A stretch of 64,000 nucleotides of DNA from Candidatus Kapaibacteriota bacterium (lineage in GTDB: Bacteria; Bacteroidota; Ignavibacteria; OLB7). The notes under the pieces are model-generated. The model searched no databases and was not told the origin of the DNA. It worked only from the letters and a program-made list of their open reading frames with translations. The translations under genes were made by a program, and so were the position numbers. The stretch lies in contig JBMDXA010000091.1 in NCBI GenBank assembly GCA_048594725.1, positions 19,970 through 83,969 of the forward strand, given 5' to 3'. Positions 6,401-62,518 of this stretch are shown piece by piece. Position 1 is the stretch's first letter. Each line of letters starts with the position of its first letter.

Positions 6401-7858
6401 GGGGGTGAACTGCGTGTTGGTAACCACCTTGCCGCCGGGGACCGGAACGGTGATGCCGATGGCCGCAACATCGTGGGTCACCGGGTTCTCCAGCGGCACC
6501 ACGCAGGGAAACGCCTCCGCCTTGCTTCTGATGAGCGCGGCCACGCGGGGGTGGAAATACAGCTGGGTGCCGAACTGCGTAAGATGGCAGTAGCTCATGA
6601 TGCTTCCCACGCGGGGCTTGGTGGAGCTGAAGCAATTGCCGCTCTCGGCCGCGTAGCAGGAGTCGATCGCCGGTGCCCAGGCGCAGCTATGGGTATGTGC
6701 CGAGCCGAAGTTGTGCCCCAGTTCGTGCGAGACCACATCGACATCCCATGCATAGGATGTGCTCGGAAAGACTATGTTATTACCCAGGCCGATGGCCGCA
6801 TAGCCCGATGCCGGGGCGCACAGCGTGTTGACATAGGCGATGCCGCCGCCGATCGACTTGGTGGAGAAGAGATGGGCTACCGCTCTGTTGACCGTGCCCA
6901 TGTTGTTCGCCCAGTAGGTGCGCATCTGCCCGAGAAGCGTGCTGCTGGTGGTGCCGGGATAGGGATCGGAGCCGGTCCAGACGCGCAGGTACGACACCTG
7001 GAGGGCGACGTTGAGATCGCGCTGGTAGATGGCCGATACCGCCCCGGTCACCGTCAGTGCGTACGTGACCGAGCGTGCAAGGCTGCGTCCGTGCGCCGCG
7101 TAATACTCCGCATCGCAATCGATCGCCATCTGCGCCACCAGCGGTTTGTTGCCCTGGAGGCTTTTCTCCGCCTCTGTCAGACGGCCGTATTCCTTGAACG
7201 AGCGCATAATCCCCTGCTCGTACTCCGGCAGCTCCTCGGCGCCGCACTCCCAGTGCCAGGGGCTCTGCCCGGTCTTCCTCTCGGCCGCCTGGAGCGCCTC
7301 GCGCTCGTTGTATGCCACCATCACCGACGGCGTCCCCTCGTTGATGCTCAGGGGCGCGAACGTGATGCGGCGGGAGGTGCCGTCATCGGAGACGGGGCGA
7401 TCGATATAGCCGGAGCAGTAGTCGCGGAAGACTGCCAGGTAGACGAAGGAGCCCGGAAGTTCGGCCACGGTACCGCTCAGGAAGATGCTCTGGGGGAGTT
7501 CGGCCGGACGATCGCCCGTCTGCGTGCCGGCTACTACTGCGCCGCCCGGGGCCAGTACATTGAAGCGGCGGAGCTGGAACGTCCCGGTGGTGCCGCCGGG
7601 GAGCCGCACCCCTTCCAGGGTGACGGAGGTACCCGGCAGCTCTGCAAGGCGCTCGAACGCGGCGGGATCGATTCGGAAGAATGCTGATGACGGAGGGATT
7701 TCATCCCCTCTCTGTGCGGGCGCTCCCGGATGTGCGGTGAACAGTCCGTTGAAAGACGTTGCACCATCGGACGACCGTGGATCGTTCTGCTGCGCATGGG
7801 CGGAATGCAACAGCATGAATGCACTCAGTACTATACCAAGTAGCCAGGTATATCTCAT
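3482..7858 (-). CDS. T9SS-sorted secreted multidomain metzincin zinc metalloprotease (signal peptide, propeptide-like region, HExxHxxGxxH catalytic domain, Ig/Fn3-like modules, ~8 SBBP-type beta-propeller repeats, C-terminal T9SS sorting domain)
   Basis: 1458-aa ORF starting MRYTWLLGIVLSAFMLLHSAHAQ (signal peptide). It carries HELGHNFGSAHTH and a Met-turn (SIMSYC). Repeats of the form GGxxxDxAxGIAxDxxGNxYVAG / SAGGSDAFLAKFNANG recur about 8 times. The C-terminus (...NPTMGTFMVELELPEPGELRLIVRDMAGREVL...GIYLLEIHAGKTVWNQKVVKQ) is a type-A T9SS sorting domain. Confidence 0.9.
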   Translation of the reverse strand: MRYTWLLGIVLSAFMLLHSAHAQQNDPRSSDGATSFNGLFTAHPGAPAQRGDEIPPSSAFFRIDPAAFERLAELPGTSVTLEGVRLPGGTTGTFQLRRFNVLAPGGAVVAGTQTGDRPAELPQSIFLSGTVAELPGSFVYLAVFRDYCSGYIDRPVSDDGTSRRITFAPLSINEGTPSVMVAYNEREALQAAERKTGQSPWHWECGAEELPEYEQGIMRSFKEYGRLTEAEKSLQGNKPLVAQMAIDCDAEYYAAHGRSLARSVTYALTVTGAVSAIYQRDLNVALQVSYLRVWTGSDPYPGTTSSTLLGQMRTYWANNMGTVNRAVAHLFSTKSIGGGIAYVNTLCAPASGYAAIGLGNNIVFPSTSYAWDVDVVSHELGHNFGSAHTHSCAWAPAIDSCYAAESGNCFSSTKPRVGSIMSYCHLTQFGTQLYFHPRVAALIRSKAEAFPCVVPLENPVTHDVAAIGITVPVPGGKVVTNTQFTPTASFRNTGTVVQLLVPVTFVIRDSAGAKLYDNTRTIPVLQPGESVTVTFASTSIQAVARCNATVTITPLTDANPQNNTLARPFETVASSAASITLLAPNDFTVLRSGSTATIAWNYTGTITALRIDFSADDGMTWQTVKTELTANTGGKIYTWTVPAVATTRGRIRISDRDNASVADQSDQAFTVVTLPLEWQWARSIGGRMEDEARGVAIDRDDNVYITGTFSDSIRLGATRMSSRGSTDVYLAKYNAGGTLQWARQIGGIGPDSATAIALDGVGNVHLAGGFSSSITIGSTALTSAGGTDAFIAKYDPNGNPLWGQRGGGGSADMAYGVAVDTNGNVLATGMFTGNASFGTSSLVSAGGTDIFVVRYAPAGALAWSARLGGAEDDAGNGIATDSYGGSYVAGRFRSSMSVGSGTITSAGGSDAFLAKFNANGTTAWGAVAGGPENDEASAVVADRTGNATMSGSLAGTVNFGNFFASSSGGRDMFIARYNAVGTVQWARTAGGSGDDAATELAIDAFGNCYVAGTFRNQFTIAQLELSSSGGSDIFFAKYGTDGLVQWARRGGGARDEEAGGIAIAASGENGFVVGRYGFAPPSDQPSIYGEDRLSGAGMNDGMVARIGMFKTVTPSEGELLMAGTPRNITWTGTTANNVRIEYSGDNGTSWTTLAGTAPNNGVYNWTPDTPCVQGLIRVTDADNPSIYGEAQSGTFAVISSSSATVAPAVNLRGSALHGAAHLIWEPSSSQEITGYALYRGMNGEEVTRIATVEKEVLEYTDGSVTLCTDYFYHVRALVNQRESFPSNTAQVYAAPARPEVIRQPATLILSSSVEGESYQWFRNGEEIAGATERSFTANLDGAYTVMVFSGTGCSVLSDPLPVRIASGVTGSSRIAESVPVLQPNPTMGTFMVELELPEPGELRLIVRDMAGREVLRAGEIHARGTYRREMDITSLPSGIYLLEIHAGKTVWNQKVVKQ

Positions 7859-8553
7859 AGTCTACGCGATGTTATAGTCGCTTTCTGCGACTTGTGGGAG
7901 TGTGCGGCCGGCGAGCGTTAGGGCAGGGAAATGCCCATGCGCCCAAGTAGATGGGCGTTGGCGGAGAACCCGAGCTGGATACTGACAGTGAGGTTTCTCC
8001 GGATCAGTGAACGCTCAGAGCGCCTGGACCTGTGGTAGTCGTATAGCGGCGTCAGCTCCGGGGATGAAGCTAGGGGGGAAAGCACTGATCAAACGGCCTG
8101 TTGCAAGCCTCGTTGTAAGGAGTGTCCTAAATAACGACACACCCGGAGCAACCTGCAAGCAGAATTTTATCGTTTGATTGAGCATCCCGAAAAAACATCT
8201 GAAAGGAAGGTTCGCCCCGAAAATGTTCTGGGCGAAAGAAAGAAAAACAACGGCGCCGGAGACGATGCCGGCGGCGTCCTTATTGTACGGTGCCGGAGGG
8301 TGATGGCGCGGGGGCGGTAGAGCCTGGTATTGAATTTTCGCTGATTTCGCCGTTTTTCAATCGGGCATGCTCTGCGGTGGCGCACCCTGGCCGGAAGGGG
8401 CGCGGCGCCCGGTGCGGGAGTTGCGGGGCGATGAATTCCTCTGAAATTGCAGTAATGAGCTGTTGTGCTCCGTGCGGTGGCGGGGTAAAAAAATCCTTAC
8501 ACTCCGGCGCTGCCGTCATCCCTGCGGGGAATTTTATCAATCCGAATTATCGC

Positions 8554-9711: not shown

Positions 9712-10470
9712 ATGAAAGCATTTCTTATGCTGGCACTCGGTCTGGTCCTGGTCTCATGCCAGGAACAGGCGGGGGGCAGCGGCTCCACCACCCTGAAGTC
9801 CAACGATGACAGTGTCAGTTACAGCATCGGCCTCAGCATCGGCAAGAGCAGTCTGCAGGATTCGCTCAACCTCAACCCCGATCTGCTCGCCGCCGGTATC
9901 CGCGATGCGGTTGCCAGCAAGCCGATGCTCACCGATTCGCAGACCCAGAACGTGATGAACGGGTTCAACCAGCGAATGATGGAAAAGCAGCAGGCCAAGA
10001 TGATGCAGATGCAGGATAGCATGCGCAAGGCCGGCGAAGGAAACAAGTCGGCCGGCGAGAAGTTCCTGGCCGAGAACAAGGCAAAGCCGGGCGTGGTAAC
10101 CCTCCCGAGCGGCCTCCAGTACCAGGTCATCACCGAGGGCACCGGCCCCATGCCGAAGTCCACCGACGAGGTGAAGGTGCACTATCGCGGCACCACCATC
10201 GACGGAACCGTCTTCGACAGCTCCATCGATCGCGGCGAGCCGGTGACGTTCGGCGTAACCGGCGTCATCCCCGGCTGGAGCGAGGCGCTTCAGCTGATGA
10301 AGGTGGGCTCCAAGTGGAAGCTCTTCATCCCGGCCGAGCTCGCATACGGCGCCAATCCTCCCGACCAGAAGATCGGCCCGAACTCGGTGCTGCTGTTCGA
10401 TGTGGAGTTGCTGGAGATCGTGAAGAAGGGGGCCAACAACCTTTCCACGCCGAACCCCGGCAGCAAGTAA
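9712..10470 (+). CDS. FKBP-type peptidyl-prolyl cis-trans isomerase (FkpA/Mip-like), lipoprotein
   Basis: MKAFLMLALGLVLVSC (lipoprotein signal + Cys), an N-terminal dimerisation helix region, and a C-terminal FKBP domain (...VHYRGTTIDGTVFDSS...GVIPGWSEALQLMKVGSKWKLFIPAELAYG...). Confidence 0.85.
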   Translation: MKAFLMLALGLVLVSCQEQAGGSGSTTLKSNDDSVSYSIGLSIGKSSLQDSLNLNPDLLAAGIRDAVASKPMLTDSQTQNVMNGFNQRMMEKQQAKMMQMQDSMRKAGEGNKSAGEKFLAENKAKPGVVTLPSGLQYQVITEGTGPMPKSTDEVKVHYRGTTIDGTVFDSSIDRGEPVTFGVTGVIPGWSEALQLMKVGSKWKLFIPAELAYGANPPDQKIGPNSVLLFDVELLEIVKKGANNLSTPNPGSK

Positions 10471-10814: not shown

Positions 10815-11504
10815 TTGATGAAAACGCTGATTATTTCGGCGCTCTGCCTCGGTTTTGTGACGGTGGCCGCGAGCGCGCAGCAGGCCAAGCTCACAAATCG
10901 CATCGATAGCGCCAGCTACAGCATCGGCTGGGATATCGGCAACAGCCTGAAGGCCCAGGGAGTCTCGCTCACCCCGTCGCTGCTGGCCCAGGGGATCTCG
11001 GATGCGCTCGGCGCACAGAAGTCGGCGCTGACCGATGAGCAGATGCAGGGGATCATCATGGAGCTTCGCCAGGAGATGGCGGCGAAGGCGCAGGAGAAGA
11101 TGCAGCAGATGGCGCTGGAGAACCAGAACGCCGGTGCCGCATTCCTGGCCGATAACAAGAAGAAGAAGGGGGTTACCACCCTGCCGAGCGGTTTGCAGTA
11201 CGAGGTTATCAAGCAGGGCTCCGGCGCCATGCCCAAGGCCACCGATAACGTCACCGTGCATTATACCGGCAAGCTGATCGATGGCACCGTCTTCGATAGC
11301 TCCGTGCAGCGCGGCGAGCCGGCCGAGTTCAAGGTCAATGGCGTCATCCGTGGCTGGACCGAGGCACTTCAGCTGATGAAGGCCGGTTCGCAGTGGAGAC
11401 TCTTCATCCCCGCCGAGCTTGCCTATGGCACGCAGGGCGCCGGCCAGACCATCGGGCCGAACTCGGTGCTGGTGTTCGATGTCGAGCTTCTGAAGGTGAA
11501 CTGA
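10815..11504 (+). CDS. FKBP-type peptidyl-prolyl cis-trans isomerase (FkpA-like), secreted; tandem paralog of 9712..10470
   Basis: MMKTLIISALCLGFVTVAASAQQ signal peptide. The FKBP domain (VHYTGKLIDGTVFDSS...GVIRGWTEALQLMKAGSQWRLFIPAELAYG) aligns colinearly with the upstream paralog. Confidence 0.85.
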   Translation: MMKTLIISALCLGFVTVAASAQQAKLTNRIDSASYSIGWDIGNSLKAQGVSLTPSLLAQGISDALGAQKSALTDEQMQGIIMELRQEMAAKAQEKMQQMALENQNAGAAFLADNKKKKGVTTLPSGLQYEVIKQGSGAMPKATDNVTVHYTGKLIDGTVFDSSVQRGEPAEFKVNGVIRGWTEALQLMKAGSQWRLFIPAELAYGTQGAGQTIGPNSVLVFDVELLKVN

Positions 11505-15460: not shown

Positions 15461-16290
15461 GGGGGGCGATGCGGTAATGCGGTAGTGGTGAGCCCGGCCG
15501 GGTGCTGCTGGCAACGGTGTTGCTCCATCGGCCGGCCCATATCACGGTAGTAGCGTATGCGCGGCATAGTCCGGACCCCTCCCATCAGCCCCCCGGATTG
15601 CATGTGGTCCCGCTCGGCGATGCGAATGACGATGTGGGGGCATGCGTATCCGCATGTGTACCTTCCGGGGTGGCGGCCCGGCTGTAGCGATGGCGGATGG
15701 GGAGAAGGATTGCCCCTCTACATCCGGAGCCTCAGGATCTACGGAGGTAATTTTCTTTGGGATACCAGCGATTTACTATTCCCTTCGCCCCCTTTTTGTT
15801 TTAAATTATTCCCAGCTCCAACCTCGCCCTAGGAGCAAAGGGTCACTGCGAATCATCTCCATACAGCGTATTCACTGTAATCCTTACTCCCCCCCGGAGC
15901 TTTTGCGACGTGTCGGCGAATTGCAGCAACCGTCTTGCCGGGTAGAGCCATCGCCTCGAGCAGATTTACGACAGCAGGATAACCATCCGGGCGGAAGCCG
16001 CCTGATGCTGAGATAGCGCCATCACGTATGCGCAGTTTTGTATGATGCCCTCCTGGGAGGGGAGAAAGCCCCTACAGGAGTCTCCATCGGCATGATACTC
16101 CATTGATGGGAGTGCCGGGAGACTGCTGGCATCATCGCCCCACGATCTTTTGAAAACCATCACACAATGCGGAGATCACCATGAGTAAACGAATCGAATC
16201 CTTCCGTTCATTCCCCGCTCCTGATCTATTCCCCAGGAATATATCGGTGCCGGTAAAAGCGTATCACCAGCGCAGAGGAGAGAGCGGGCT

Positions 16291-17190
16291 ATGAAAAACG
16301 GACGATGGCCGGAATATGTACCACCGCAGAATCCTGGAAAATCGAGCAGATATCTGCGTTGGAGCAAGGAAGAGGATACCACTCTGAAGCTGCATTACTC
16401 CAAGCGCGGGTCCCGTTATACCGCCGAGCTTCTCGGGCGGTCGGTTACCAGCGTGCAGCACCGCGCGCTGAAACTGGGCATTCCCGGCAATGGCGTGCGG
16501 GTCTGGACGGAGATGGAGGTGCGATACCTTCGCAGCCGCTACCCGAAAATGTCGGTGGCGCAGATCTGCCGTACCCTCCACCGGAGCGAGCAGAGCGTGC
16601 GGGGGCAGATCAACCGTCTGGGGCTTGGCTCTCCTGCACCTACACCATGGACCGATGGGGAGATAGCCTATCTGCGAGCCCACTATGGACGGGTGAAGGT
16701 GGCTGAGCTGGCCGACGAACTGGGGCGCTCCCCGGATGCGGTGGAGATCAAGGCGGGGAAGCTGGGACTGAGCCGGAAGAATGTGAAGCTCACCGAGGAG
16801 GATAAAGTCTACGTCCTCGAAAATCTGGGACGCATCCCCTATACGAAAATGGCGGCTAAGCTCGGGGTGGATGTCAAGAAACTGATGCGCCTGGCGGCCA
16901 AACATGGGTTTCATGCCCGTGGTACCTGCCGTCCCTGGACCGATACCGAGGATGAATTCCTCCGGCGCCATTATGGCGATATGGCCCGCAAGAGCATCGC
17001 CGAGCAGCTTGGCCGCACTATCGGCGCGGTGGGGGTGCGTGCCGGGATGCTGGGGCTGACCAAGGGGCGCGGTGCCGAACCGGCTCCCCTGCCGGCTCCG
17101 CCGGTTCCGGCCAGGAAGCCGGCAACCGGGCGTATCAGAAAGATGCAGCCGGCCCAGGTCTATGCCTTGCGAAGCGCCGACGGGCACTGA
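16291..17190 (+). CDS. Protein composed of five tandem ~45-aa Myb/SANT-like helix-turn-helix repeats (W-[ST]-x2-E-[DE]-x2-L-x3-Y ... A-x2-LGR[ST]-x3-V-x2-R-x3-LGL); putative multivalent DNA-binding protein
   Basis: The five repeats are RWSKEEDTTLKLHY...AELLGRSVTSVQHRALKLGI, VWTEMEVRYLRSRY...CRTLHRSEQSVRGQINRLGL, PWTDGEIAYLRAHY...ADELGRSPDAVEIKAGKLGL, KLTEEDKVYVLENL...AAKLGVDVKKLMRLAAKHGF and PWTDTEDEFLRRHY...AEQLGRTIGAVGVRAGMLGL. A Pro/Ala/Arg-rich basic tail follows. The antisense track ORF 16264..17187(-) is Arg/His/Pro-rich junk. Confidence 0.75.
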   Translation: MKNGRWPEYVPPQNPGKSSRYLRWSKEEDTTLKLHYSKRGSRYTAELLGRSVTSVQHRALKLGIPGNGVRVWTEMEVRYLRSRYPKMSVAQICRTLHRSEQSVRGQINRLGLGSPAPTPWTDGEIAYLRAHYGRVKVAELADELGRSPDAVEIKAGKLGLSRKNVKLTEEDKVYVLENLGRIPYTKMAAKLGVDVKKLMRLAAKHGFHARGTCRPWTDTEDEFLRRHYGDMARKSIAEQLGRTIGAVGVRAGMLGLTKGRGAEPAPLPAPPVPARKPATGRIRKMQPAQVYALRSADGH

Positions 17191-42824: not shown

Positions 42825-43948
42825 AAAAGCTGATAATCCTCTGATTGAGTTGCAGGAGTACACGAGTGAAGCGCCGGCTCGTACGGGGCGAGAAATTCGC
42901 CGACGATCCGGTTTACCTGGTCGTATTCGATCAGAAATGCATCGTGGCCGCACGGGGAATCGATCTCCCGGTAGATGCCGTTCGGGAGCAGGCGGGCAAG
43001 TTCCCGCTGCTCGTGTGCCGGATAGAGCACATCGGTTGTGATGCCCAGGCAGAGCGCCGGCTGCCGTACCGTGGCGAGCGTTTCCTCCAGCGAGCCCCGG
43101 CCGCGCCGTATGTCGTGCAGGTCCATGGCGCGCGTCAGCGTCTCGTAGGTGGCCGTATCGAACCGCTCGATGAAGCGCTCCCCCTGATGCTCCAGGTAGC
43201 TCTGCACCGGAAAGGAACGGTCGATGGAGTCCGGCAGCTCGCCGAACGGCTCGCGCGCGAAGCGCCCGGCGAACTCGATGCTGCTCCGGTAGGTCATCGT
43301 GGCGATCTTCCGCGCCAGCCGGAGCCCGGCCTCCTCGTTGCCGGTGGCGCGCCCCAGAGCTATCGCCTCGCGCGCCACGCTGCTGAAGGCAGTACGCCAC
43401 GGGGAATGCATGGCGCTGGTCGCCATCGGGATGATGAGCTCCACATCATCCGGGAAGAGGAGCGCCCATTCCAGCACCTGCATCCCTCCCATCGATCCAC
43501 CGACCACCGCGTGAACCCGTTCTATCCCGAGCTTCCAGAGAAGGAGCCGCTGGACGCGAACCATATCGCGCACCGTGACCGCCGGGAACGAGCGCCCATA
43601 GACCGTTCCGGAGGCGGCATCCAGGGAGTTGGGGCCGGAGGTGCCGTAGCGCCCGCCAAGCACATTGGAGCAGACCACGAAATACCGGTTCGTGTCGATA
43701 GCCTTGCCGGGACCGATCAGCCCATCCCACCATCCCCGCGTTCCGTTCTCCCTGGTGCCGGCGGCATGGGCGCTGCCGGTAAGCGCATGGCAGACCAGGA
43801 TGACGTTGCTGCGATCCTCGTTGGGGGTTCCGTAGGTCTCATAGGCCACGGCAAGCGGCGCTATCGCCGCGCCGCATTCCAGATGGAACGGGGAGTCGAC
43901 CGAGGTAAGGCGAATGGTTGCCGCGGTGCGGTTCAGAGCATCAGACAT
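42821..43948 (-). CDS. metX: Homoserine O-acetyltransferase
   Basis: Internal ATG (MSDALNRTAATIRL...) of track ORF 42821..44005. It has the alpha/beta-hydrolase MetX signature (...HALTGSAHAAG...VVGGSMGGMQVLEW...). Confidence 0.9.
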   Translation of the reverse strand: MSDALNRTAATIRLTSVDSPFHLECGAAIAPLAVAYETYGTPNEDRSNVILVCHALTGSAHAAGTRENGTRGWWDGLIGPGKAIDTNRYFVVCSNVLGGRYGTSGPNSLDAASGTVYGRSFPAVTVRDMVRVQRLLLWKLGIERVHAVVGGSMGGMQVLEWALLFPDDVELIIPMATSAMHSPWRTAFSSVAREAIALGRATGNEEAGLRLARKIATMTYRSSIEFAGRFAREPFGELPDSIDRSFPVQSYLEHQGERFIERFDTATYETLTRAMDLHDIRRGRGSLEETLATVRQPALCLGITTDVLYPAHEQRELARLLPNGIYREIDSPCGHDAFLIEYDQVNRIVGEFLAPYEPALHSCTPATQSEDYQLL

Positions 43949-45164
43949 GGCTCGGCTCCAGCTGCCCGATTGCCGGCTCATTGGTCCCAAGGGAATCGAT
44001 CGCAACGGCGTTGGCGGTGCGTTCCGCCGCTGCCAGGGCCTGCGCCAGATCGTTGATGAGATCCTCCTGATCCTCCACCCCGACCGAGAGGCGTATCACC
44101 GCATCGGTGATCCCGGCGGCCGCGCGCTGCTCCGGGAGCATGGCCGCATGGCTCATGGTGGCCGGCTGCTCTATCAGCGATTCCACGCCGCCGAGCGATT
44201 CGGCAAGGGCGAAGATCTGCGTGGAGAGAAGGAGCGTGCGGACGGCATCCTGGCCGCCACGCAGCGCAAAGGAGACCACGCCGCCGAACCCGCTCTGCTG
44301 CCGTCTGGCAAGCTCGTGTCCCTGGTGCGATTCCAGTCCGGGATAGAAGACCTTCTCCACCAGCGGGTGATCCTCAAGGAATCGGGCAACCGCCAGTGCA
44401 TTGGCCTCGTGCTGCTTCACCCGGAGCGAAAGGGTCTTGATGCCGCGCAGCACCAGCCAGCAGTCGAACGGCTGTGCGGTGGTGCCGTGCGCGTTTGCCA
44501 GATAGGCGAGCTTCTGATGAAGTTCCGTGGTGCGGGCGATGATGGCTCCTCCCACCACGTCGGAATGGCCGTTGATATACTTGGTGGTGGAGTGCACCAC
44601 GATATCGGCGCCGAAGGAGATGGGCTGCTGGAAGGCCGGGGAAAGGAAGGTGTTGTCCACGATCAGGGTGAGCCCGGAGGAGCGGCTGAAGCGGCCGATC
44701 GCCTCCAGATCAACGATCCGCAGGAGCGGGTTGGAAGGGGTTTCCACCCAGAGCGCGCGGGTGTTCGGCCGCACGGCGTCGGCCAGGGCAATCGGGTTGG
44801 TGAGATCGACGAAGGATACCTGGAGCTTTCCCTGATCGCGCAGGGAGCGGAGCAGCCGCTCGGTGCCGCCGTAACAGTCGTGCGAGCAGATGATATGATC
44901 CCCGGCATTGAACGACGAGAGCACGGTGGAGATGGCGGCCATGCCGGTATTGACGGCCACGGCACCGGCCCCCCCTTCCAGATCGGCAAGGAGATCCTCC
45001 AGTGCCTTGCGCGTGGGGTTGCCGCTGCGGGTATAATCGAACCCGCGGGTAACGCCTACGTCATCGAATCCGAAAATCGCGGACTGGTAGATCGGTGGTA
45101 CGATGCTGCGGTAACATCCGTCGGTCTGCTGGCCGGCAAGCACAATCCGTGTGTTGATCTTCAT
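43941..45164 (-). CDS. Cys/Met-metabolism PLP-dependent enzyme (cystathionine gamma-synthase / O-acetylhomoserine sulfhydrylase family)
   Basis: Internal ATG (MKINTRIVLAGQQTDGCYRSIVPPIYQSAIFGFDD...) of track ORF 43941..45479. Motifs: YTRSGNPTR and a PLP-lysine context (...HSTTKYINGHSDVVGGAI...). 408 aa. Confidence 0.85.
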   Translation of the reverse strand: MKINTRIVLAGQQTDGCYRSIVPPIYQSAIFGFDDVGVTRGFDYTRSGNPTRKALEDLLADLEGGAGAVAVNTGMAAISTVLSSFNAGDHIICSHDCYGGTERLLRSLRDQGKLQVSFVDLTNPIALADAVRPNTRALWVETPSNPLLRIVDLEAIGRFSRSSGLTLIVDNTFLSPAFQQPISFGADIVVHSTTKYINGHSDVVGGAIIARTTELHQKLAYLANAHGTTAQPFDCWLVLRGIKTLSLRVKQHEANALAVARFLEDHPLVEKVFYPGLESHQGHELARRQQSGFGGVVSFALRGGQDAVRTLLLSTQIFALAESLGGVESLIEQPATMSHAAMLPEQRAAAGITDAVIRLSVGVEDQEDLINDLAQALAAAERTANAVAIDSLGTNEPAIGQLEPSHV

Positions 45165-45259
45165 CGCTCTCTGCTCCTGTTGTATAATGCGAGATAAGTA
45201 TTTTATCGTACATCTCACCAGGAACGGGGAACGAAGATCACGCGATGCGCCGGACGCAT

Positions 45260-45298
45260 AACGAAAATGCCCCCTCATCGCGGGAGCATTGAGGGGGC
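45260..45298 (-). terminator. Intrinsic terminator forming the expression platform of the SAM-I riboswitch (minus strand)
   Basis: The minus strand reads GCCCCCUCAAUGCUCCCGCGAUGAGGGGGC followed by AUUUUCGUU, about 100 nt upstream of the metB-family start codon. Confidence 0.6.
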
Positions 45299-45439
45299 AA
45301 CAGTATGGCTGCGGGAGGGCAGCCATGTATGCATGAAATGCATATCGCCACCTCATCTTCCCTGGAAAAACAAAAAACCCTCCGGGAGTAGTGGAGGGCA
45401 GCAGGGCACGGCCATACGGCGTGCTGTTCATGCGTGTCC

Positions 45440-45559
45440 CCCATCTTCCCTGGCTCTCTGTCCAGGCAGGATTTAGCACCTGGGCGTCTCGTGAGCTGCG
45501 CTCGCGAAACCGGTTGCTACGACGTCATCGGGCCTGATCCCTCGGTCGTTCTTGATGAG
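45440..45559 (-). promoter_or_regulatory. SAM-I (S-box) riboswitch aptamer in the 5' leader of the metB-family/metX/hom operon
   Basis: The minus-strand RNA reads ...CUCAUCAAGAAcgaccGAGGGAucaGGCCCgAUGAcgucguaGCAACCgguuucgcgagcgcagcucacgagacgcccaGGUGCUAAAUCCugccuggacagagagccagggaAGAUGGGGG.... It contains the S-box signature elements GAGGGA, GGCCCGAUGA, GCAACC and GGUGCUAAAUCC, plus a P1 closing helix (CUCAUC/GAUGGG). Confidence 0.8.
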
Positions 45560-45786
45560 TTGACATGAACATACAACGGTAGCGCGGCCGGATGCAAGAA
45601 GTTTTTTGTATACCCGGAACCTGCGCCGGCCGGTACCAGGGGGGTATTCCGCTGGGAACTGCGGGGGACCACTACGCGGGGAATGCCTTGGTCCGCCGGC
45701 GGCACCGCATTAACTTCACCACCCATTCCCTCCTCCTAATCTCCGATTGCTTCTCATGTTGTTTCCTGGAATGGAAGGATTCCGCC

Positions 45787-51977: not shown

Positions 51978-52042
51978 GCAACGCCGCCAGGGCGCAGCAG
52001 GAGAGATGAAGGATGTCTCCTGTGCGTTTCTGGCGGCGTTGC
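51978..52042. terminator. Long near-perfect hairpin (13-bp outer stem GCAACGCCGCCAG/CUGGCGGCGUUGC plus inner CAGGAGA/UCUCCUG) between convergent genes
   Basis: Read directly as gcaacgccgccagggcgcagcaggagagatgaaggatgtctcctgtgcgtttctggcggcgttgc. No adjacent U-tract. It sits between the 3' ends of 51470..51922(+) and 52256..52624(-). Confidence 0.45.
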
Positions 52043-52255
52043 GTTATCCCCCGGCGATGAATCACTAGAGCAGATTTCAGTTGAGTTTGCCCTATCACCT
52101 GGCAGAAGACTGGGCCGCTCCTACGGAGCTTCCACAGAAAAGAGATCCTGTATCTACAAACGGGCAACACCTATACGTGTTGGCTACGGGGGCCACAAGC
52201 GATACACTCAAGTGAAATCCGCTCTAATCACTGCGGGCCGTGGTGCTCCTGGCTC

Positions 52256-52624
52256 TCACTCCAGCCCGCGCGCTTCCAGATCGTCCTCATCGAACCCGAT
52301 CATATGCCCGAGTTCATGAACGAGGGTGATGCGGATCTGCCCGGCCAGTTCCTCGGGCTCGGGAAAGTCCTCTATCAGCGGACCCCGGAACAGGTAGATT
52401 CTATCCGGCAGGAGAACCGGATTCTCCGAGGGGGCACGCAATCCCACGGGCGTGCCATCGTAATAGCCGTAGGGGGTCTCCTCCACCGGAATTCCTCCCA
52501 TGCGCTCCCGCATCTCCCGGTCGGCCCAGTCATCGATAATGATGGCGCACTCGGCGAGCACCTCCTGCAATTCCTCTGGAAGCTCGTCGATGACATCCTG
52601 CACGATCGATTCAAATTCGGCCAT
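52256..52624 (-). CDS. Minimal zinc metallopeptidase-family protein (Zincin_1/DUF-type, HExxH)
   Basis: 122 aa starting MAEFESIVQDVIDELPEELQEVLAECAIIIDDWADREMRERMG... with ...ITLVHELGHMIGFDEDDLEARGLE. Confidence 0.75.
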   Translation of the reverse strand: MAEFESIVQDVIDELPEELQEVLAECAIIIDDWADREMRERMGGIPVEETPYGYYDGTPVGLRAPSENPVLLPDRIYLFRGPLIEDFPEPEELAGQIRITLVHELGHMIGFDEDDLEARGLE

Positions 52625-52625
52625 G

Positions 52626-52800
52626 GAATTTTCGATTTTCGATTTTGGATTTTCGATTGGGGGAAGGGGGAGGAATTTTCGATTTTCGATTTTGGATTTT
52701 CGATTGAGGGAAGGGGGAGGGATTTTCGATTTTGGATTTTGGATTTTCGATTGGGGGAACGGGGGAGGAATTTTCGATTTTCGATTAAGGGATCGGTGAG
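52626..52800 (+). repeat. About 3.5 tandem copies of an AT-rich ~47-bp unit (GGAATTTTCGATTTTCGATTTTGGATTTTCGATTGGGGGAAGGGGGAGG), starting 2 nt from the start codon of the minus-strand metallopeptidase gene
   Basis: Read directly. The unit boundaries are about 52626-52672, 52673-52720, 52720-52767 and a partial copy to about 52800. Its AT-rich core alternates with G-runs, which is conspicuous in a GC-rich genome. Confidence 0.85.
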
Positions 52801-52839
52801 GCGTGTGGGGGGAGAGTGCCGGCCTCGGACTCCCAACTC

Positions 52840-52910
52840 CTCAGTTTCCGACTCCCGACTTTTCAACTTCCGACTTTTCAACTCTCGATTCTTCAACTTC
52901 CGGCTCCCTC
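52840..52910 (+). repeat. 4-5 tandem ~15-bp repeats (CGACTTTTCAACTTC-like), adjacent to and loosely resembling the 52626..52800 repeat family
   Basis: The sequence is gactcccaactcctcagtttccgactcccgacttttcaacttccgacttttcaactctcgattcttcaacttccggctccctcaattcc. Confidence 0.6.
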
Positions 52911-53017
52911 AATTCCTGCCCTGCTATCCTCTCCCCTTCTCATTCGCGTGGATTTCATCTCCACTTCTACGAATCGATGGATGCTCCCCTACTCCCGTCC
53001 GCCAAGATTTGCGACCA

Positions 53018-53479
53018 TTAGCGGTTACCGGCGAACTCAGGCCCGAACATCGTTGCCAGCGACTGGCGGGTATCGGCATCGGTGCCGCGATAGACCAGGA
53101 TCACCTTTTCGGTGCTGTACAGATGCACCGGCGATTCCCAGGCGATGGTCTCGTTGCCCACCCTGGTGCCATCCGGGCTGATGGTTGCCTTCACCTCGTT
53201 CAGCTCCTCCGCCGAATCATATTCGTACACCTCCAGCGATACGCCGTTATTCACATCGAGCAGATAGCCATCCGTATCCATCGCCGGGCGCTCGGCGCGG
53301 CGCGGCACACGCACCTGAAGACCGCTCGCCTTCATGATATTGATGATATTGAATGTCGGGCTCTGCACCTCGATCTGCGGGGTGAGATCCCCTCCGTTCT
53401 CCTGCGGGGCCTTGTCGTCGTCGCAGGCGGCAAGAAACCCCAGAAGAATGACCGGAAGGAGAAGGCTGGTACTGCGCAT
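53018..53479 (-). CDS. Hypothetical lipoprotein
   Basis: MRSTSLLLPVILLGFLAACDDD lipobox; 153 aa. Confidence 0.6.
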   Translation of the reverse strand: MRSTSLLLPVILLGFLAACDDDKAPQENGGDLTPQIEVQSPTFNIINIMKASGLQVRVPRRAERPAMDTDGYLLDVNNGVSLEVYEYDSAEELNEVKATISPDGTRVGNETIAWESPVHLYSTEKVILVYRGTDADTRQSLATMFGPEFAGNR

Positions 53480-53541
53480 GGATCGTTCTGAAATTGGATG
53501 AAGTAAGAGTGTTACGGCAAGGTTATCGGCGTTGATGCCGG

Positions 53542-54900
53542 TCAGGCTATCCAGATGGTTTTGATATTGACGAACTCGCGGATGCCGAATTCGGCCAGTT
53601 CCCGTCCCACCCCGCTGGCCTTGACGCCGCCGAACGGGAGCCGGGGATCGGATTTCACCATGCCGTTGATGAAGACCGATCCGGCCTCTATCTCGTTTGC
53701 GAACCGTTCCTGTTCCTCCTTCTCGGCTGTCCAGGCCGAGGAGCCGAGGCCGAACCGGGTATCGTTCGCCATACGGATGGCCTCATCCATATCGCGCACC
53801 CGGATCACGGCCGCCACCGGACCGAACGTCTCCTCCTGATACGCAGGCATGCCGGGGCGCACATTACCCAGCACCGTCGGCTCGTAGAAATAGCCATCCC
53901 CCTCCATCTTCCTGCCGCCGGCGAGCACCGTGGCCCCCTTCTCCACCGATTCGGTCACCTGGCGGTGGAGATCATCCACGAACTCCGGCCGCGCCAGCGG
54001 GCCGATATCGGTGCCGGGTTCCAGCGGGTCTCCCACACGGAGCCTGGCGATACCCTCCACGAAGAGCCGCTCGAACTCATCGGCTATCTCCTCCTGCACT
54101 ATAAAGCGTTTGGCGGCGATGCAGCTCTGGCCGTTGTTGATGGTGCGGGCGGTGACGGCGGTCTGGGCAGCCTTCTTGAGATCGGCGCTTTTCATCACGA
54201 TGAACGGATCGCTCCCGCCAAGCTCCAGCACCACCTTCTTGATATTCCCCCCGGCCGATTCCCCCACCTTCCGTCCCGCCTCCTCGCTGCCGGTAAGGGT
54301 AACGGCGGCCACGCGATCGTCGCCGATGATTGCCGATACCTTCGCCGATCCTATCAGGAGGGTCTGGAAGCAGCCCGGAGGAAATCCGGCCGCGGTGAAG
54401 ACCTCCTCGATTGCCACCGCCGACCCGGGGACATTGGAGGCATGTTTCAGCAGGCAGACATTCCCGGCCATAAGCGCCGGCGCCGCAAAGCGGAAGCACT
54501 GCCAGAAGGGGAAGTTCCAGGGCATGATGGCGAGCACCGGTCCCACCGGCTGAAACCGCACATAACTCTTCGATGCATCGGTTTTCGAGGGGGTATCGGC
54601 GAGGAACTGCGCGGCATTATCGGCGTAATAGTCGCAGGCCCAGGCGCATTTCTCCACCTCCGATTCGGCGGCGGCAATCGGTTTCCCCATCTCCTCGGTC
54701 ATCAGCCGCGCGTAGGTGGCGGAGCGTTCGCGCAGGATGGCGGCAGCCTTGCGCATCAGCGTGGCACGCTCGGCGAACGAGGTGGTGCGGTACTCGGCGA
54801 AGCGTTCGGCGGCCAGCGCCAGCTTCCGTTCGATCTCCGCATCATCATGATCGGGATATTCTGCGATCAGCAGATTATTTGCAGGATTGATAGCGCGCAT
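53542..54900 (-). CDS. NAD(P)-dependent aldehyde dehydrogenase (succinate-semialdehyde dehydrogenase-like)
   Basis: Internal ATG (MRAINPANNLLIAEYP...) of track ORF 53542..55185. It has the ALDH catalytic Cys and Glu contexts (...LELGGSDPFIV...; ...NNGQSCIAAKRFIV...; ...EETFGPVAAV...). 453 aa. Confidence 0.9.
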   Translation of the reverse strand: MRAINPANNLLIAEYPDHDDAEIERKLALAAERFAEYRTTSFAERATLMRKAAAILRERSATYARLMTEEMGKPIAAAESEVEKCAWACDYYADNAAQFLADTPSKTDASKSYVRFQPVGPVLAIMPWNFPFWQCFRFAAPALMAGNVCLLKHASNVPGSAVAIEEVFTAAGFPPGCFQTLLIGSAKVSAIIGDDRVAAVTLTGSEEAGRKVGESAGGNIKKVVLELGGSDPFIVMKSADLKKAAQTAVTARTINNGQSCIAAKRFIVQEEIADEFERLFVEGIARLRVGDPLEPGTDIGPLARPEFVDDLHRQVTESVEKGATVLAGGRKMEGDGYFYEPTVLGNVRPGMPAYQEETFGPVAAVIRVRDMDEAIRMANDTRFGLGSSAWTAEKEEQERFANEIEAGSVFINGMVKSDPRLPFGGVKASGVGRELAEFGIREFVNIKTIWIA

Positions 54901-55099
54901 CCGTATCTCCAGATAGATCGGTATGGGATTCCGGCGCATGGAGGGATGATCCCGCAGTGCGGCCGATGGAACCCGTGTGCCCCGGCCACGGGATTTCCCC
55001 TGGCCGGAAAGCATATACGCAAACCGGGAGCCGATTATAACGGCTCCCGGCATATCCTGCAAACCTGGAATATTCTTCCGCTCCTCTCCCGTCGCGAAC

Positions 55100-55603
55100 C
55101 TAGCGCGGCCGGAAGATCCCCTCGGTCTTGCGCCGTGCCTCGTCGATCTGGTCGCGTACCCGCGCGGCCTGATCCAGTTTCTCATTCGCCTTGTTCATGG
55201 TCCGCTCCGCCTGATCGATAGGATCGCCGCCGGACTGCGAGCGCTGGGCCGAGCTGCGGGAGGTGCCGCTTTTCGACGACGTGCTCTTGGCTGCCAGGCT
55301 GGTGGCCGTTGCGGGCTGCTTCTGCAGGAGCCCCGCATAGCGCGGATCGGCGCGGAACACACCGATCACCTCGGCGGCGAGAGCGGAATCGGCTATCGCA
55401 AGGGAGAGTGCATCGTCGAACGTCCCTTTTTCGAACGAGCGGCGGATAACATCGGCTGTCATCGTCTTGTCCCCGGCTATCTCGCCCACATGATCGGCGG
55501 GGGGCGGCACCGGAACGGTCCGGGGATCGGTCTCGACGCGGCTATCGCAGGCGGCGAGCGTCAGCAGTGCGGCGGCCAGCGCCGGAATTACCCTTCTGTT
55601 CAT
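55100..55603 (-). CDS. Hypothetical lipoprotein
   Basis: MNRRVIPALAAALLTLAACDS lipobox. The C-terminus is low-complexity Ser/Gln-rich and helical. Confidence 0.5.
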   Translation of the reverse strand: MNRRVIPALAAALLTLAACDSRVETDPRTVPVPPPADHVGEIAGDKTMTADVIRRSFEKGTFDDALSLAIADSALAAEVIGVFRADPRYAGLLQKQPATATSLAAKSTSSKSGTSRSSAQRSQSGGDPIDQAERTMNKANEKLDQAARVRDQIDEARRKTEGIFRPR

Positions 55604-55745
55604 GGGATCACCTCGTTGTTCGCATTCATTGACGGAAGAACTTCATCGCGCATACGAGCCTGGACGATGAGCCCGCTGCTACAGGGGCTCGATACAAATC
55701 CAGGGCCGGAAGTTCTTGGAGCAACGAGTCCGCAGGAGGATTAAT

Positions 55746-55840
55746 GGATTTTCGATTTGCGATTTTAGATTTTCGATTGGTGATTCGGAAAGGGGGAGGG
55801 ATTTTCGATTAGCGATGGGAGAAGATTTTTGATTGACGAG
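55746..55840 (+). repeat. Second locus of the AT-rich TTTTCGATTTTGGATTTTCGATT repeat family (forward orientation)
   Basis: The sequence is ggattttcgatttgcgattttagattttcgattggtgattcggaaagggggagggattttcgattagcgatgggagaagatttttgattg. It lies about 145 nt upstream of the start of the lipoprotein gene at 55603. Confidence 0.8.
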
Positions 55841-56112
55841 GGGGAATGATGATGTAGGCGGGGGTGCATAGGCGATTGCGGTGTCGCGGGGCTATACGCC
55901 GCTATCTGCTCTGCATCACGGCGCATGGAGCGCAACGCCGCGCGAACGGCACGCAACCGGGGGAAATGAAATTCCGCAGAACGTATTCAGTAGACAGGTA
56001 GTAGTGAAAAGCCGGAGTGAGCAGTGAATAGCTGATGGTGAATGGCGCAGCAGCTGGCACCGGAGACAACCGCACAGCGGCTTCCGCCCCCTGAACCCTC
56101 ACGTCCTCTCTT

Positions 56113-56149
56113 CCAATCGAAAATCCAAAATCCAAAATCGAAAATTCCC
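56113..56149 (-). repeat. Third copy of the same repeat family in inverted orientation; it forms an inverted pair with 55746..55840, flanking about 270 bp
   Basis: The plus strand reads caatcgaaaatccaaaatccaaaatcgaaaattccc, the reverse complement of GGGAATTTTCGATTTTGGATTTTGGATTTTCGATTG. Confidence 0.8.
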
Positions 56150-56318
56150 AGACCGAGCGAGGGCCCAGCAGCCCCGTAGACAGATCCTGCCCTGCGGGAG
56201 TGTTGAGCCCTCTCGATATCATCGCATCATTGTACGCTGTGCCGGTGGCACGGGATCAGGGAGTGAGGGCGGGAAGCCCGGGCATCCAGAGAATAAGGCA
56301 TCGCCGGCGGATACCGTT

Positions 56319-56816
56319 TTAGTTCCCGTTTTCCTGGGTCGCGGCCGCCATGGAGACATCTTCCTGCCAGATCTCGTGGTTCGGGTTGAAGCAGTCGAAG
56401 CAGGAGACATGAAGATCCGCACCGATAGCCGCCAGCTTGGTGAGCGTTTCGCTCTTGAAGCAGACGTTCATCAGGCCGAGGAAGGAGGTAAGCGTATAGT
56501 TGAAGTAGATCTTCTCCACACCGTTCTCCCGCAGGGCATCCACATGGGGAGCGATGGCGTCGGCAAGGCAGTTCAGCTGGTGATCGCGGCACTCGGTGAC
56601 GTCGTCCTGCGACGAAACCTCATGGGTCCAGAAGCCCTTTTCATAGACTGCGTCGCTGCTGCCGTTACGGCGGGGATCGCCGGTACGGGCCGACTTGAGA
56701 GGCTGAAGTTCGAGAAGGGCCGTGATCCCATCGGGATTGATGTTCTGGCCGATCATATTGACTTCGACGGAGAAATCATTGGTAAGTGTGTCGCGCGTTG
56801 CTCGCATAAGCATCAC
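56319..56816 (-). CDS. DUF4279-family protein
   Basis: ...DFSVEVNMIGQNINPDGITALLELQPLKSARTGDPRRNG...KLAAIGADLHVSCFDCF... matches my recollection of the DUF4279 pattern (F.I.g..ldPdeIT..Lgi.Pt...kGDp...G...lgadldfDiY). The overlapping antisense track ORF 56376..57023(+) is less protein-like. Confidence 0.55.
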   Translation of the reverse strand: MMLMRATRDTLTNDFSVEVNMIGQNINPDGITALLELQPLKSARTGDPRRNGSSDAVYEKGFWTHEVSSQDDVTECRDHQLNCLADAIAPHVDALRENGVEKIYFNYTLTSFLGLMNVCFKSETLTKLAAIGADLHVSCFDCFNPNHEIWQEDVSMAAATQENGN

Positions 56817-57019
56817 CAGGTTATATATGGAGAGGAGACTATGGCTACGATCCAGACAGATTCATGGAGTCCGTTATCATCACGCGGAATAGAGGACGCG
56901 CGAGATCGGAACGAAATTGGAACTCGCAGGGAAAATGTCTCCCGGAAGTTCTATCACAGGGGCCGTAAGTCCTGTGGCGGAAGGCCGGCGTCACCGCCGG
57001 ATGGCAGCAAGTATACGGG

Positions 57020-62446: not shown

Positions 62447-62518
62447 TTGAGGCGGTAGGATTCGAACCTACGGTACGCGGCTCCAAAGGCCGCTGCCTTA
62501 CCGCTTGGCTACGCCTCA
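62447..62518 (-). tRNA. tRNA-Gln (anticodon TTG)
   Basis: The minus-strand sequence TGAGGCG-TA-GCC-AAGCGGTAAG-GCA-GCGGC-CTTTGGA-GCCGC-GTACC-GTAGG-TTCGAAT-CCTAC-CGCCTCA-A folds as a cloverleaf. It has a 7-bp acceptor stem, a GTTCGAATC T-loop and the anticodon loop C-T-TTG-G-A. It is colinear with E. coli tRNA-Gln(UUG) and is followed by CC. Confidence 0.85.

Follow-up and report, generated by a model that had tools for sequence, protein, structure and literature searches.

A 64-kb stretch of DNA from Candidatus Kapaibacteriota bacterium (contig JBMDXA010000091.1; hereafter the window, to which as a whole all positions refer) contains three repeat loci, A, B and C, which are built from a T-rich heptamer of the type GATTTTN. 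They belong to a class that is very common in bacteria, the intergenic heptamer tandem repeats: a 7-nt unit is repeated head to tail at least three times, is located in non-coding DNA near gene ends and is polymorphic between relatives. In the window, this satellite is young, variable in copy number and located in spacers of co-directional genes. With a modest preference, we regard it as a slippage-driven passenger that is tolerated in operon spacers and at most modulates expression, and not as a dedicated operator. Repeats are quoted for their T-rich strand.

Heptamer architecture of the three loci

The sub-period of the repeat is exactly 7 bp, both in Tandem Repeats Finder (TRF) and in a period scan, and not 8 to 11 bp as assumed in the initial annotation of this stretch. 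In five of five full copies, a 33-nt module is composed of four heptads, (R/G)ATTTTN x4, and a closing GATTG, for example AATTTTC GATTTTC GATTTTG GATTTTC GATTG. In locus A, where TRF reports nested period-7 arrays at 52628-52658, 52675-52705, 52721-52752 and 52770-52786, the unit reads AATTTTC-GATTTTS-GATTTTG-GATTTTC-GATTG (33 nt) followed by the G-rich spacer GGGGAAGGGGGAGG, which results in 47 bp. The minus-strand mRNA of this locus reads (CCUCCCCCUUCCCCC-AAUCGAAAAUCCAAAAUCGAAAAUCGAAAAUU)n-CC-AUG. Over the 55 nt compared, the copies of locus A are 96% and 87% identical to the first copy, so their amplification is recent.

Locus B comprises one clear direct copy at 55745-55799 and a degenerate stretch that extends to about 55840. 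Its module reads GGATTTTC GATTTGC GATTTTA GATTTTC GATTGG, and its G-rich spacer is 7 nt longer than that in A. Identity to the reference 55-mer amounts to 69%, and TRF reports period 7 at 55747-55778. On the minus strand, locus C reads GGAATTTTC GATTTTG GATTTTG GATTTTC GATTGG with a loosely purine-rich tail. It is 97% complementary to the third 47-mer of A (52719-52754) and 91% complementary to the block 55748-55780 of B. Together, B and C form a convergent pair with the T-rich arm first on both strands; the arms comprise 33 nt and are separated by 332 nt. Between them, at about 55995-56045, a loose AGTGAAN-like heptamer run, GTAGTGAAAAGCCGGAGTGAGCAGTGAATAGCTGATGGTGAATGG, is found, possibly another decaying heptamer array.

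Within the window, the repeat is confined to these loci. The 13-mer GATTTTSGATTTT (at most one mismatch) yields 16 matches compared to 0.09 expected, and GATT at 7-bp spacing occurs at least three times in succession at five places compared to none in shuffles; all these matches fall into loci A to C. Periods 7 and 14 appear nowhere else in the period scan, which in addition shows a period-15 run at 52849-52888 and no further period. All three loci lie inside 3.5 kb, and the other 60 kb of the window are without copies. Looser relatives had been suspected at about 8160-8200 and 15745-15790. Neither region carries the unit in motif, period or GATT-spacing checks.

In part, the initial annotation was borne out. 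It had reported a repeat family in both orientations, which TRF and repeat comparison recovered as the three loci, and about 3.5 copies of an approximately 47-bp unit beside the start of an HExxH peptidase gene (TRF: 3.4 copies at 52625-52786, abutting the Zincin_1 CAT). A further unit at 55746-55840, about 145 nt upstream of a lipoprotein gene, was located at 55745-55840 and 141 nt, and the inverted copy at 56113-56149 was found at 56113-56148. Locus A is indeed an AT-rich island, with a GC content of 0.43 at 52600-52799 compared to about 0.58-0.67 in the flanking DNA. The arrays are non-coding as proposed: open reading frames (ORFs) across them overlap real genes and translate into FDFRF-type repeats. 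The 15-bp repeat placed at 52840-52910 exists with this period at 52851-52902 and shares its spacer with A. However, it is not related to the 47-bp unit as had been thought, but is an unrelated minisatellite, purine-rich on the mRNA strand.

Two other identities were rejected, in agreement with the initial annotation. Clustered regularly interspaced short palindromic repeats (CRISPR) would need unique spacers, whereas the 14-15-nt 'spacers' of locus A are near-identical G-tracts; no cas genes were found among the neighbours of the arrays by Pfam or in the gene order of the relative L119 (see below). A typical repetitive extragenic palindrome (REP) or bacterial interspersed mosaic element (BIME; REPIN) does not apply either: the module is a direct heptamer run and not a palindrome, locus A shows no excess fold on either strand, and no gene for the REP-associated tyrosine transposase RAYT (TnpA-REP) was found among the array neighbours in the 64-kb window.

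Another proposal was a structural DNA element, i.e. a G-quadruplex (G4) formed by the GGGGGAAGGGGGAGG tracts or a curvature caused by phased T-tracts. Each unit does contain G-runs of 5+5 nt, heptamers of the types GGGAATC and GGGGAYT form G4 in vitro (PMC4692102), and GATTTTC modules adjoin GATTGGG-type heptamers in the cyanobacterial locus L047. Nevertheless, we give this explanation hardly any credence. A regular-expression search for four tracts of at least three G with loops of at most 7 nt found none in 52600-52850: there are two or three G-runs per unit, the next G-tracts are about 34 nt away, and no canonical G3+N1-7 x4 motif exists in or across units. Moreover, the G-tract is missing from copies B and C and from most members of the wider family. 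Nor do the T-tracts add up to a planar bend, because their 7-bp period does not match the 10.5-bp turn of the helix.

Spacers, neighbouring genes and close relatives

Table 1. Repeat loci of the window and the genes that adjoin them (strand of repeats: T-rich strand).
Feature	Position	Strand	Description and basis
Locus A	52625..52786	+	47-bp unit, 3.4 tandem copies; Tandem Repeats Finder: 93% matches, score 287
Locus B	55745..55840	+	one full module, then degenerate second unit
Locus C	56113..56148	-	single module, inverted
15-bp minisatellite ACTCCCGACTTTTCA	52851..52902	+	TRF: 3.5 copies, 81% matches
Zincin_1 (PF06262) small metallopeptidase gene	52256..52624	-	122 aa; Pfam E = 8e-21
Lipoprotein-like gene upstream of Zincin_1	53018..53479	-	no Pfam match; ORF list
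Lipoprotein-like gene downstream of the B/C pair	55100..55603	-	ORF list and homologues
DUF4279 gene	56319..56816	-	ORF list, Pfam

The genes around the repeats (Table 1) lie co-directionally on the minus strand in the order DUF4279, lipoprotein, aldehyde dehydrogenase (ALDH), lipoprotein, Zincin_1. Array A and the 15-bp repeat lie in a 393-nt spacer between the stop codon of the lipoprotein-like gene 53018..53479 and the Zincin_1 start. The CAT at 52622-52624, i.e. the Zincin_1 start codon on the minus strand, directly abuts locus A, and Zincin_1 homologues (122-125 aa) have the same start. Loci B and C share the 715-nt spacer between DUF4279 and the lipoprotein gene, where B is located 141 nt upstream of the lipoprotein start (55603) and C 170 nt downstream of the DUF4279 stop and about 510 nt upstream of the lipoprotein start. 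Hence, the statement that each repeat lies just 5' of a gene is correct for A but not for C.

A comparison of orthologous spacers revealed variation in the presence of the repeats. In the relative L118 (92% DNA identity), an orthologous array with the same distal flank precedes Zincin_1 with about 1.4 units compared to 3.4 in the window, and the junction AATCGAAAATTCC-ATG is identical in both. The L118 module reads AATTTTC GATTGAC GATTTTC GATTGAC: two of the four heptamers have become GATTGAC, and the four GATT cores are kept. At the place of the 15-bp repeat of the window, L118 (1-45) carries a different 15-bp unit, ACAGGAGTTGAGGAG; thus, this spacer contains two independently evolving tandem repeats. 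In L119, which is about 80% identical at the DNA level and syntenic (ALDH - 158-aa protein - Zincin_1), the corresponding spacer is repeat-free and comprises 67 nt vs. 393 nt, and the DUF4279-lipoprotein spacer is likewise without repeats and about 350 nt long vs. 715 nt. The latter spacer also lacks repeats in the more distant relative L178, and the contig of the 95% relative L177 ends about 35 nt before B. As the array is shorter in the 92% relative and absent from the 80% relative, the arrays are lineage-specific, recent and variable.

Two side observations concern the same spacers. In L178, an unrelated AT-rich insertion at 2015-2800 comprises two small called genes (86 and 59 aa) and reaches past both, which suggests that the DUF4279-lipoprotein spacer is a hot spot for insertions. 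Furthermore, the contig starts of L118 and L177 fall inside and about 35 nt from the repeat loci, respectively, consistent with assembly breaks there. In practice, such arrays break short-read assemblies, and copy numbers need caution.

The paired copies B and C invited the proposal of a miniature inverted-repeat transposable element (MITE), a non-autonomous element whose terminal inverted repeats would be the modules, so that B and C would bound an insertion of roughly 400 bp. The 33-nt arms, 91% complementary around 332 nt, the spacer length compared to L119 and the near-identity of copy C to the A units without flank homology are in line with this proposal, as is the fact that many wider-family members end in AATTTT...AAAATT among the matches listed. 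Still, a MITE appears very improbable to us. The flanks GGATTAA|T and TCC|CAGACC share no target-site duplication, the internal part (272-332 nt, with 55841-56112 as its core) has no second copy within the window, and locus A is arranged head to tail and not as an inverted pair. No transposase was found among the genes adjoining loci A to C, either by Pfam or in the syntenic gene order, and loops and flanks vary among four loci of one genome. Presence/absence variation, which the initial annotation had suggested as a check for mobility, was found (array in L118, none in L119), but a MITE is not supported.

If the repeats are passengers, their origin and effects can be outlined as follows. Slipped-strand mispairing or unequal recombination would create the heptamers and the 47-bp higher-order unit and alter their copy number. 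That copy C is nearly identical to the A units, with no homology in the flanks, is probably due to exchange between dispersed arrays (gene conversion) or to some other copying process, and B and C would represent a loose convergent pair of a type common in the wider family. Because the arrays sit between co-directional genes, they are most likely transcribed, presumably within polycistronic or leader RNA. In the mRNA, locus A is predicted to be an A-rich, unstructured leader free of a Shine-Dalgarno (SD) sequence that extends up to the Zincin_1 AUG. Such a leader could support initiation in a host of the Kapabacteria/Chlorobi group (Fibrobacteres-Chlorobi-Bacteroidetes [FCB] superphylum) which apparently uses SD sequences sparingly: SD-like 4-mers were found upstream of 10 of 42 crude gene calls in the window, and the ribosomal protein L9 encoded there is 81-83% identical to proteins from Chlorobi/Kapabacteria metagenome-assembled genomes. 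A change in copy number would then be expected to alter the length of the leader and not to switch Zincin_1.

About 95 nt upstream of the lipoprotein gene, at 55690-55707 (-), the motif CC(N)GGATTTGTAT with the box CCNGGATTTGTAT is located. The box is conserved in L177 (1-25) and L178 (about 2895-2915), down to 57% protein identity, and is a candidate FCB-type -7 promoter element (TAnnTTTG-like). Copy B starts about 45 nt upstream of it and would span about -55 to -150 of this putative box. In a scan of 52000-57000 for sigma-70 promoters and intrinsic terminators, counts were at background with none at the arrays.

Outside the repeats, Rfam scans of the window and of 18 wider-family loci matched a SAM riboswitch, a tRNA and RNase P only. 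In the window, the SAM riboswitch (RF00162, 71 bits) at 45438-45561 (-) lies upstream of the minus-strand ORF 43941-45431; at the syntenic locus of L119, a Cys/Met-metabolism pyridoxal phosphate (PLP) enzyme is annotated. The tRNA gene is found at 62447-62518 (-; Rfam tRNA, 69 bits). Repeats with a period of 183 bp (61 codons) at about 70-1150 and 4670-5830 lie within two large paralogous genes. Paralogous blocks that are 70-79% identical occur at 1458-2528 and 6374-7456 (about 4.9 kb apart) and at 10042-10341 and 11121-11420 (1.1 kb). Together with the 183-bp repeats, they suggest tandemly duplicated genes for surface or secreted proteins with repeat domains.

Regularities of the wider family and their explanation

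The 19-nt core of the module is not restricted to the window. A scan for GATTTTNGATTTTCGATTG with one genome per species yielded at least 117 loci in at least 12 phyla. The sample is anchored on a pattern that ends in CGATTG, and the counts given below for this family apply to the matches listed. The carriers include Planctomycetota, Acidobacteriota, Chloroflexota, Verrucomicrobiota, Cyanobacteria and Bacteroidota, furthermore Rhodothermales/Salinibacteraceae, Desulfobacterota-type bacteria, Nitrospirae, Armatimonadota, a bacterium of the candidate phyla radiation (CPR) and an archaeon. Period-7 arrays dominate with 213 vs. 7-26 for each of the periods 5, 6, 8 and 9. The family members are not copies of one mobile element, as four loci from a single genome already have different loops and flanks. 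Homogenisation of units is seen inside each arm but not between the two arms, as independent slippage predicts, and some hairpins are mismatched in every heptad. Another point for a passenger comes from viral contigs, where (GATTTTC)3 does not exceed three permuted heptamers in frequency (19 loci vs. 16, 10 and 10); these viral arrays are without inverted partners.

A metagenome scan with the 18-mer GGGGAGGRATTTTCGATT (L179-L237) gave 59 matches, mostly in GGDEF-domain genes, because the pattern encodes GGEEFSI: a trap for pattern searches with this repeat. Only about 10 of the matches are heptamer arrays after a G-rich tract, and a 47-bp tandem array like that of the window was not among them.

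Several observations speak against a mere passenger. Within the window, copy C is identical to the third unit of A at 35 of 36 positions with unrelated flanks, which simple in-situ slippage cannot yield. The copy numbers compared between relatives come from metagenome or short-read assemblies, which can collapse tandem repeats, and the transcription, leader role and SD-independence outlined above are predicted from the sequence. At the wider-family loci, the terminal GATTG is preceded by 2 heptamers in 42 cases, by 3 in 18, by 4 in 52 and by 5 in 3, i.e. the number peaks at four with a sharp cut-off above. An inverted partner (at least 15 of 18 positions matching, within 300 nt) is located downstream in 29 cases and upstream in one, among 98 loci with enough flank. 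At these inverted-pair loci, the T-rich arm comes first on both strands, and the loops comprise 4-187 nt (median about 30). One and the same layout in one orientation is shared by about 24 of 34 hairpin loci: the T-rich arm begins 0-20 nt behind a stop codon, and after the loop, the A-rich arm ends 0-25 nt before a start codon. The arrays abut stop and start codons within conserved operons. Ten flanking ORFs were confirmed by Pfam, among them the pairs hisC-hisB, rpoA-rplQ, nuoJ-nuoK and hemA-hemC; others are a site downstream of phoH and an AhpC/TSA-Redoxin ORF downstream of the hairpin at L049. Outside these ten ORFs, gene boundaries follow a crude ORF rule with random-position controls. Finally, the same 33-nt module serves as tandem unit in a cyanobacterium, Microcoleus sp. 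F6_B6 (L047, 4328-4695): a 45-bp tandem array of 5.8 copies composed of the module and a 12-nt spacer is followed by GATTGGC/GATTGGG heptamer arrays, the same higher-order design as in the window. The four-unit cap, the 29:1 polarity and the codon abutment in essential operons are hard to obtain from neutral slippage. Therefore, two functional explanations stay alive, an RNA element and an array of binding sites.

In six other cyanobacterial loci (L004, L030, L071, L094, L096 and L104, from Microcoleus, Nostoc and Oscillatoriales), a common stretch of about 40 nt, GATTGATTCCACGGATAAATNNNGGGGCTTG..., repeatedly comes after the arrays; it may be a separate dispersed element or a small RNA. It was unmatched by Rfam in L004, L094 and L096.

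As an intercistronic RNA element, the U-rich (GAUUUUN)4 at the stop codon of gene 1 would pair with the A-rich (NAAAAUC)4 at the start of gene 2, a proposal that we consider unlikely. The same judgement applies to its extension to translational coupling, according to which the stem hides initiation of gene 2 until a ribosome ending on gene 1 opens the stem base, and to the alternative that the stem or the GAUUU sites are processing or stability determinants for RNase III or RNase E. GAUUU would fit the RNase E consensus RN|WUU. The layout of about 24 of the 34 hairpins, the real operon neighbours at the flanks, the site downstream of phoH and the 29:1 polarity agree with such an element. Other heptamer hairpins at the same loci also have a G+T-rich arm first (22 of 29 by hand count). 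An element for coupling or processing must not terminate transcription, which would explain the lack of the polarity with a U-rich 3' arm. In addition, 28% of the solo arrays begin immediately behind a stop codon on their own strand, compared to 5.6% of control positions. An A-rich-leader orientation as a general rule was rejected: solo arrays abut a start codon in this orientation in 26% of cases vs. 20% in controls, which is not convincing. In the window, B and C share the family polarity between co-directional genes. A precedent is the 5'-UTR (untranslated region) hairpin of the H. influenzae hmw (ATCTTTC)n repeats, which is cut by RNase III (PMC12721329).

However, perfect pairing is not maintained. 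Between arms, complementarity amounts to 0.72-0.83 for the GATT core and 0.52-0.55 for positions 5-7; at the seventh position, pairing reaches 52% vs. 36% expected by chance. Gene calls beyond the ten Pfam-checked ORFs are crude, and the spacers of the close relative L119 are devoid of the elements. Locus A has no partner arm, and its spacer (421 nt) shows no excess folding over dinucleotide shuffles on the mRNA strand (z = -0.66) or on the opposite strand (z = +0.71). In the predicted fold of the minus-strand 715-nt spacer (z = -3.1 over its full length), B and C do pair, as is to be expected of any inverted repeat. Yet, they are 141 and 170 nt away from the flanking codons, and their 332-nt loop is far beyond the family range. 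In this model, A would have to be a partnerless tandem 'A-arm' leader and B/C a long-range pair, i.e. derived forms. Rfam with gathering and permissive thresholds left the repeats of the window and of 18 wider-family loci unmatched.

The second functional explanation assumes that the module is read heptad by heptad, as double-stranded DNA by a cooperatively binding, dimeric, omega-like repressor or as an A-tract element resembling an upstream (UP) element in front of the lipoprotein promoter, or as single-stranded RNA by a cold-shock, S1 or CsrA-type protein. We judge this improbable. It would account for the stronger conservation of the GATT core compared to positions 5-7, which is seen in the family profile as well as between arms, and for a size fixed at four heptads in only one of the two inverted orientations. 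The latter recalls the orientation preference of omega for its heptads. It would also fit the L118 ortholog, which retained four GATT units while the variable positions changed, and the location of B about 45 nt upstream of the conserved CCNGGATTTGTAT box. For the TAACTGA heptamers, MacGregor proposed S1, Csp or CsrA as readers (PMC4679880). By contrast, the neighbours of the arrays (Zincin_1, lipoproteins, ALDH, DUF4279, an extracytoplasmic function [ECF] sigma factor, acyl-CoA dehydrogenase), to which ribosomal proteins can be added, provide no linked candidate binding protein, and the regulator would have to be conserved across 12 or more phyla. The initial annotation had speculatively linked the repeats to a protein with helix-turn-helix (HTH) repeats encoded at 16291-17190; this protein gave sigma-70 region-4-like HTH matches only, its gene is 36 kb away, and no connection to the repeats was found. 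Arm spacing varies between 4 and 187 nt, the three window copies occupy three different gene-relative positions, and the arrays are dispensable in close relatives, as the L119 spacers show.

An omega-type heptad operator was examined in particular. Omega, the ribbon-helix-helix (RHH) repressor of inc18 plasmids, uses contiguous 7-bp units with the consensus WATCACW, preferably in direct and converging orientations. The A-rich strand units of the window read AATCGAA or AATCCAA, so this identity was rejected, and no RHH match was found by Pfam among the products adjoining the arrays. Both the RNA-element and the binding-platform model accommodate the window copies only loosely.

Independently of the mechanism, it is possible, though doubtful in our opinion, that the 33-nt module is not a random microsatellite but is maintained by selection as a discrete cis element, which would serve either for intercistronic control (coupling or processing) or as a landing pad for a heptad-reading protein. 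This suggestion draws on the occurrence in at least 12 phyla, the four-heptad cap, the T-rich arm first and a spacer filled from stop to start codon. If true, the 'prime-number periodicity' of intergenic repeats in bacteria would gain a first function through such a selected module, and the four-unit preference of the Xanthomonas and Nostoc heptamers would not be due to G-quadruplexes. On its own, the window repeat is an ordinary example of a common class; its value is that of an entry point to the rules for bacterial heptamer repeats. Three regularities are testable: a four-heptad cap without the ability to form G4, the 29:1 polarity and the placement between stop and start codons in operons such as rpoA-rplQ and nuoJ-nuoK. 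With Nostoc, Microcoleus and planctomycetes, carriers that can be grown in culture are at hand to decide between passenger, RNA element and protein site.

Relation to known repeat systems

The enterobacterial REP/BIME (REPIN) elements resemble the window repeats as short dispersed sequences in operon spacers and at 3' ends, often in foldable inverted pairs and variable between strains. However, the REP unit is an imperfect palindrome with a conserved head that is mobilised by RAYT, whereas the window module is a direct heptamer run. Unlike REP/BIME, its core occurs across phyla. With the omega operators, the arrays share contiguous 7-bp units and an ATC-containing core. On plasmids, omega heptads occupy promoters beside the gene for omega itself, whereas the window arrays are chromosomal, lie in operon spacers and have no linked RHH gene.

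The closest mechanistic precedent in the leader of a gene is hmw1A/hmw2A of H. influenzae, the only heptamer repeat with an experimentally shown mechanism: the transcribed (ATCTTTC)n forms a 5'-UTR hairpin with a G-rich arm that is cut by RNase III, and expression is inverse to copy number (PMC12721329). Here as there, the leader of the gene that follows contains a pyrimidine-rich heptamer in variable copy number and, beside it, a G-rich tract. However, the hmw repeat requires at least 11 contiguous units that pair with the G-rich arm, whereas the window contains blocks of four without excess structure at A. An hmw-type riboregulator hairpin was rejected, as the free energy of the spacer is not below that of shuffles and no long stable leader hairpin is predicted. 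Furthermore, the window arrays are intercistronic and belong to an environmental FCB-group organism.

TAACTGA repeats (2-6 copies) are found directly upstream of start codons in Beggiatoaceae, Cyanobacteria and Bacteroidetes, where they replace the SD sequence (MacGregor, 2015; PMC4679880). Position upstream of a start codon, a patchy distribution across phyla and the lack of a functional pattern among adjacent genes are common to both repeats. Apart from the different heptamer, the wider GATTTTN family differs in its commonest position, directly behind a stop codon, and in its frequent inverted partners, compared to 1 in 170 for TAACTGA.

According to the general survey with SPADE, no intergenic tandem repeats of prokaryotes are more abundant than heptamers, and their function is unexplained, with 'no clear clue' (PMC6344855). 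GGGAATC in Xanthomonas and GGGGAYT in Nostoc are intergenic and transcribed, located near ORF ends, composed mostly of four units and sometimes inverted. Closely related species differ in these repeats; a regulatory role was not found, and an origin by polymerase slippage was proposed (PMC4692102). A literature search for GATTTTC, GAAAATC or (GATTTTN)n repeats retrieved nothing relevant in the searchable literature. Like GGGAATC, GGGGA(C/T)T and the cyanobacterial short tandemly repeated repetitive (STRR) heptamers, the window repeat has a 7-nt unit, is intergenic, lies near gene ends and comprises about four units. Occasional inverted pairs and variation in length and sequence between close relatives are further features shared with the Xanthomonas and Nostoc heptamers. 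Unlike GGGAATC and GGGGAYT, the window unit is T-rich and cannot form G4. Unlike in the known heptamers, the block of four heptads is in turn repeated here, together with a G-rich spacer, in a higher-order 47-bp tandem array. Nevertheless, a GATT core is common to both: read on the other strand or in another phase, the known heptamers contain GATTCCC or GATTGGG, compared to GATTTTC here. GATTGGG-type units adjoin the module both in the window and in L047, and L047 links the T-rich family and the G4-type heptamer family via the common GATT core.

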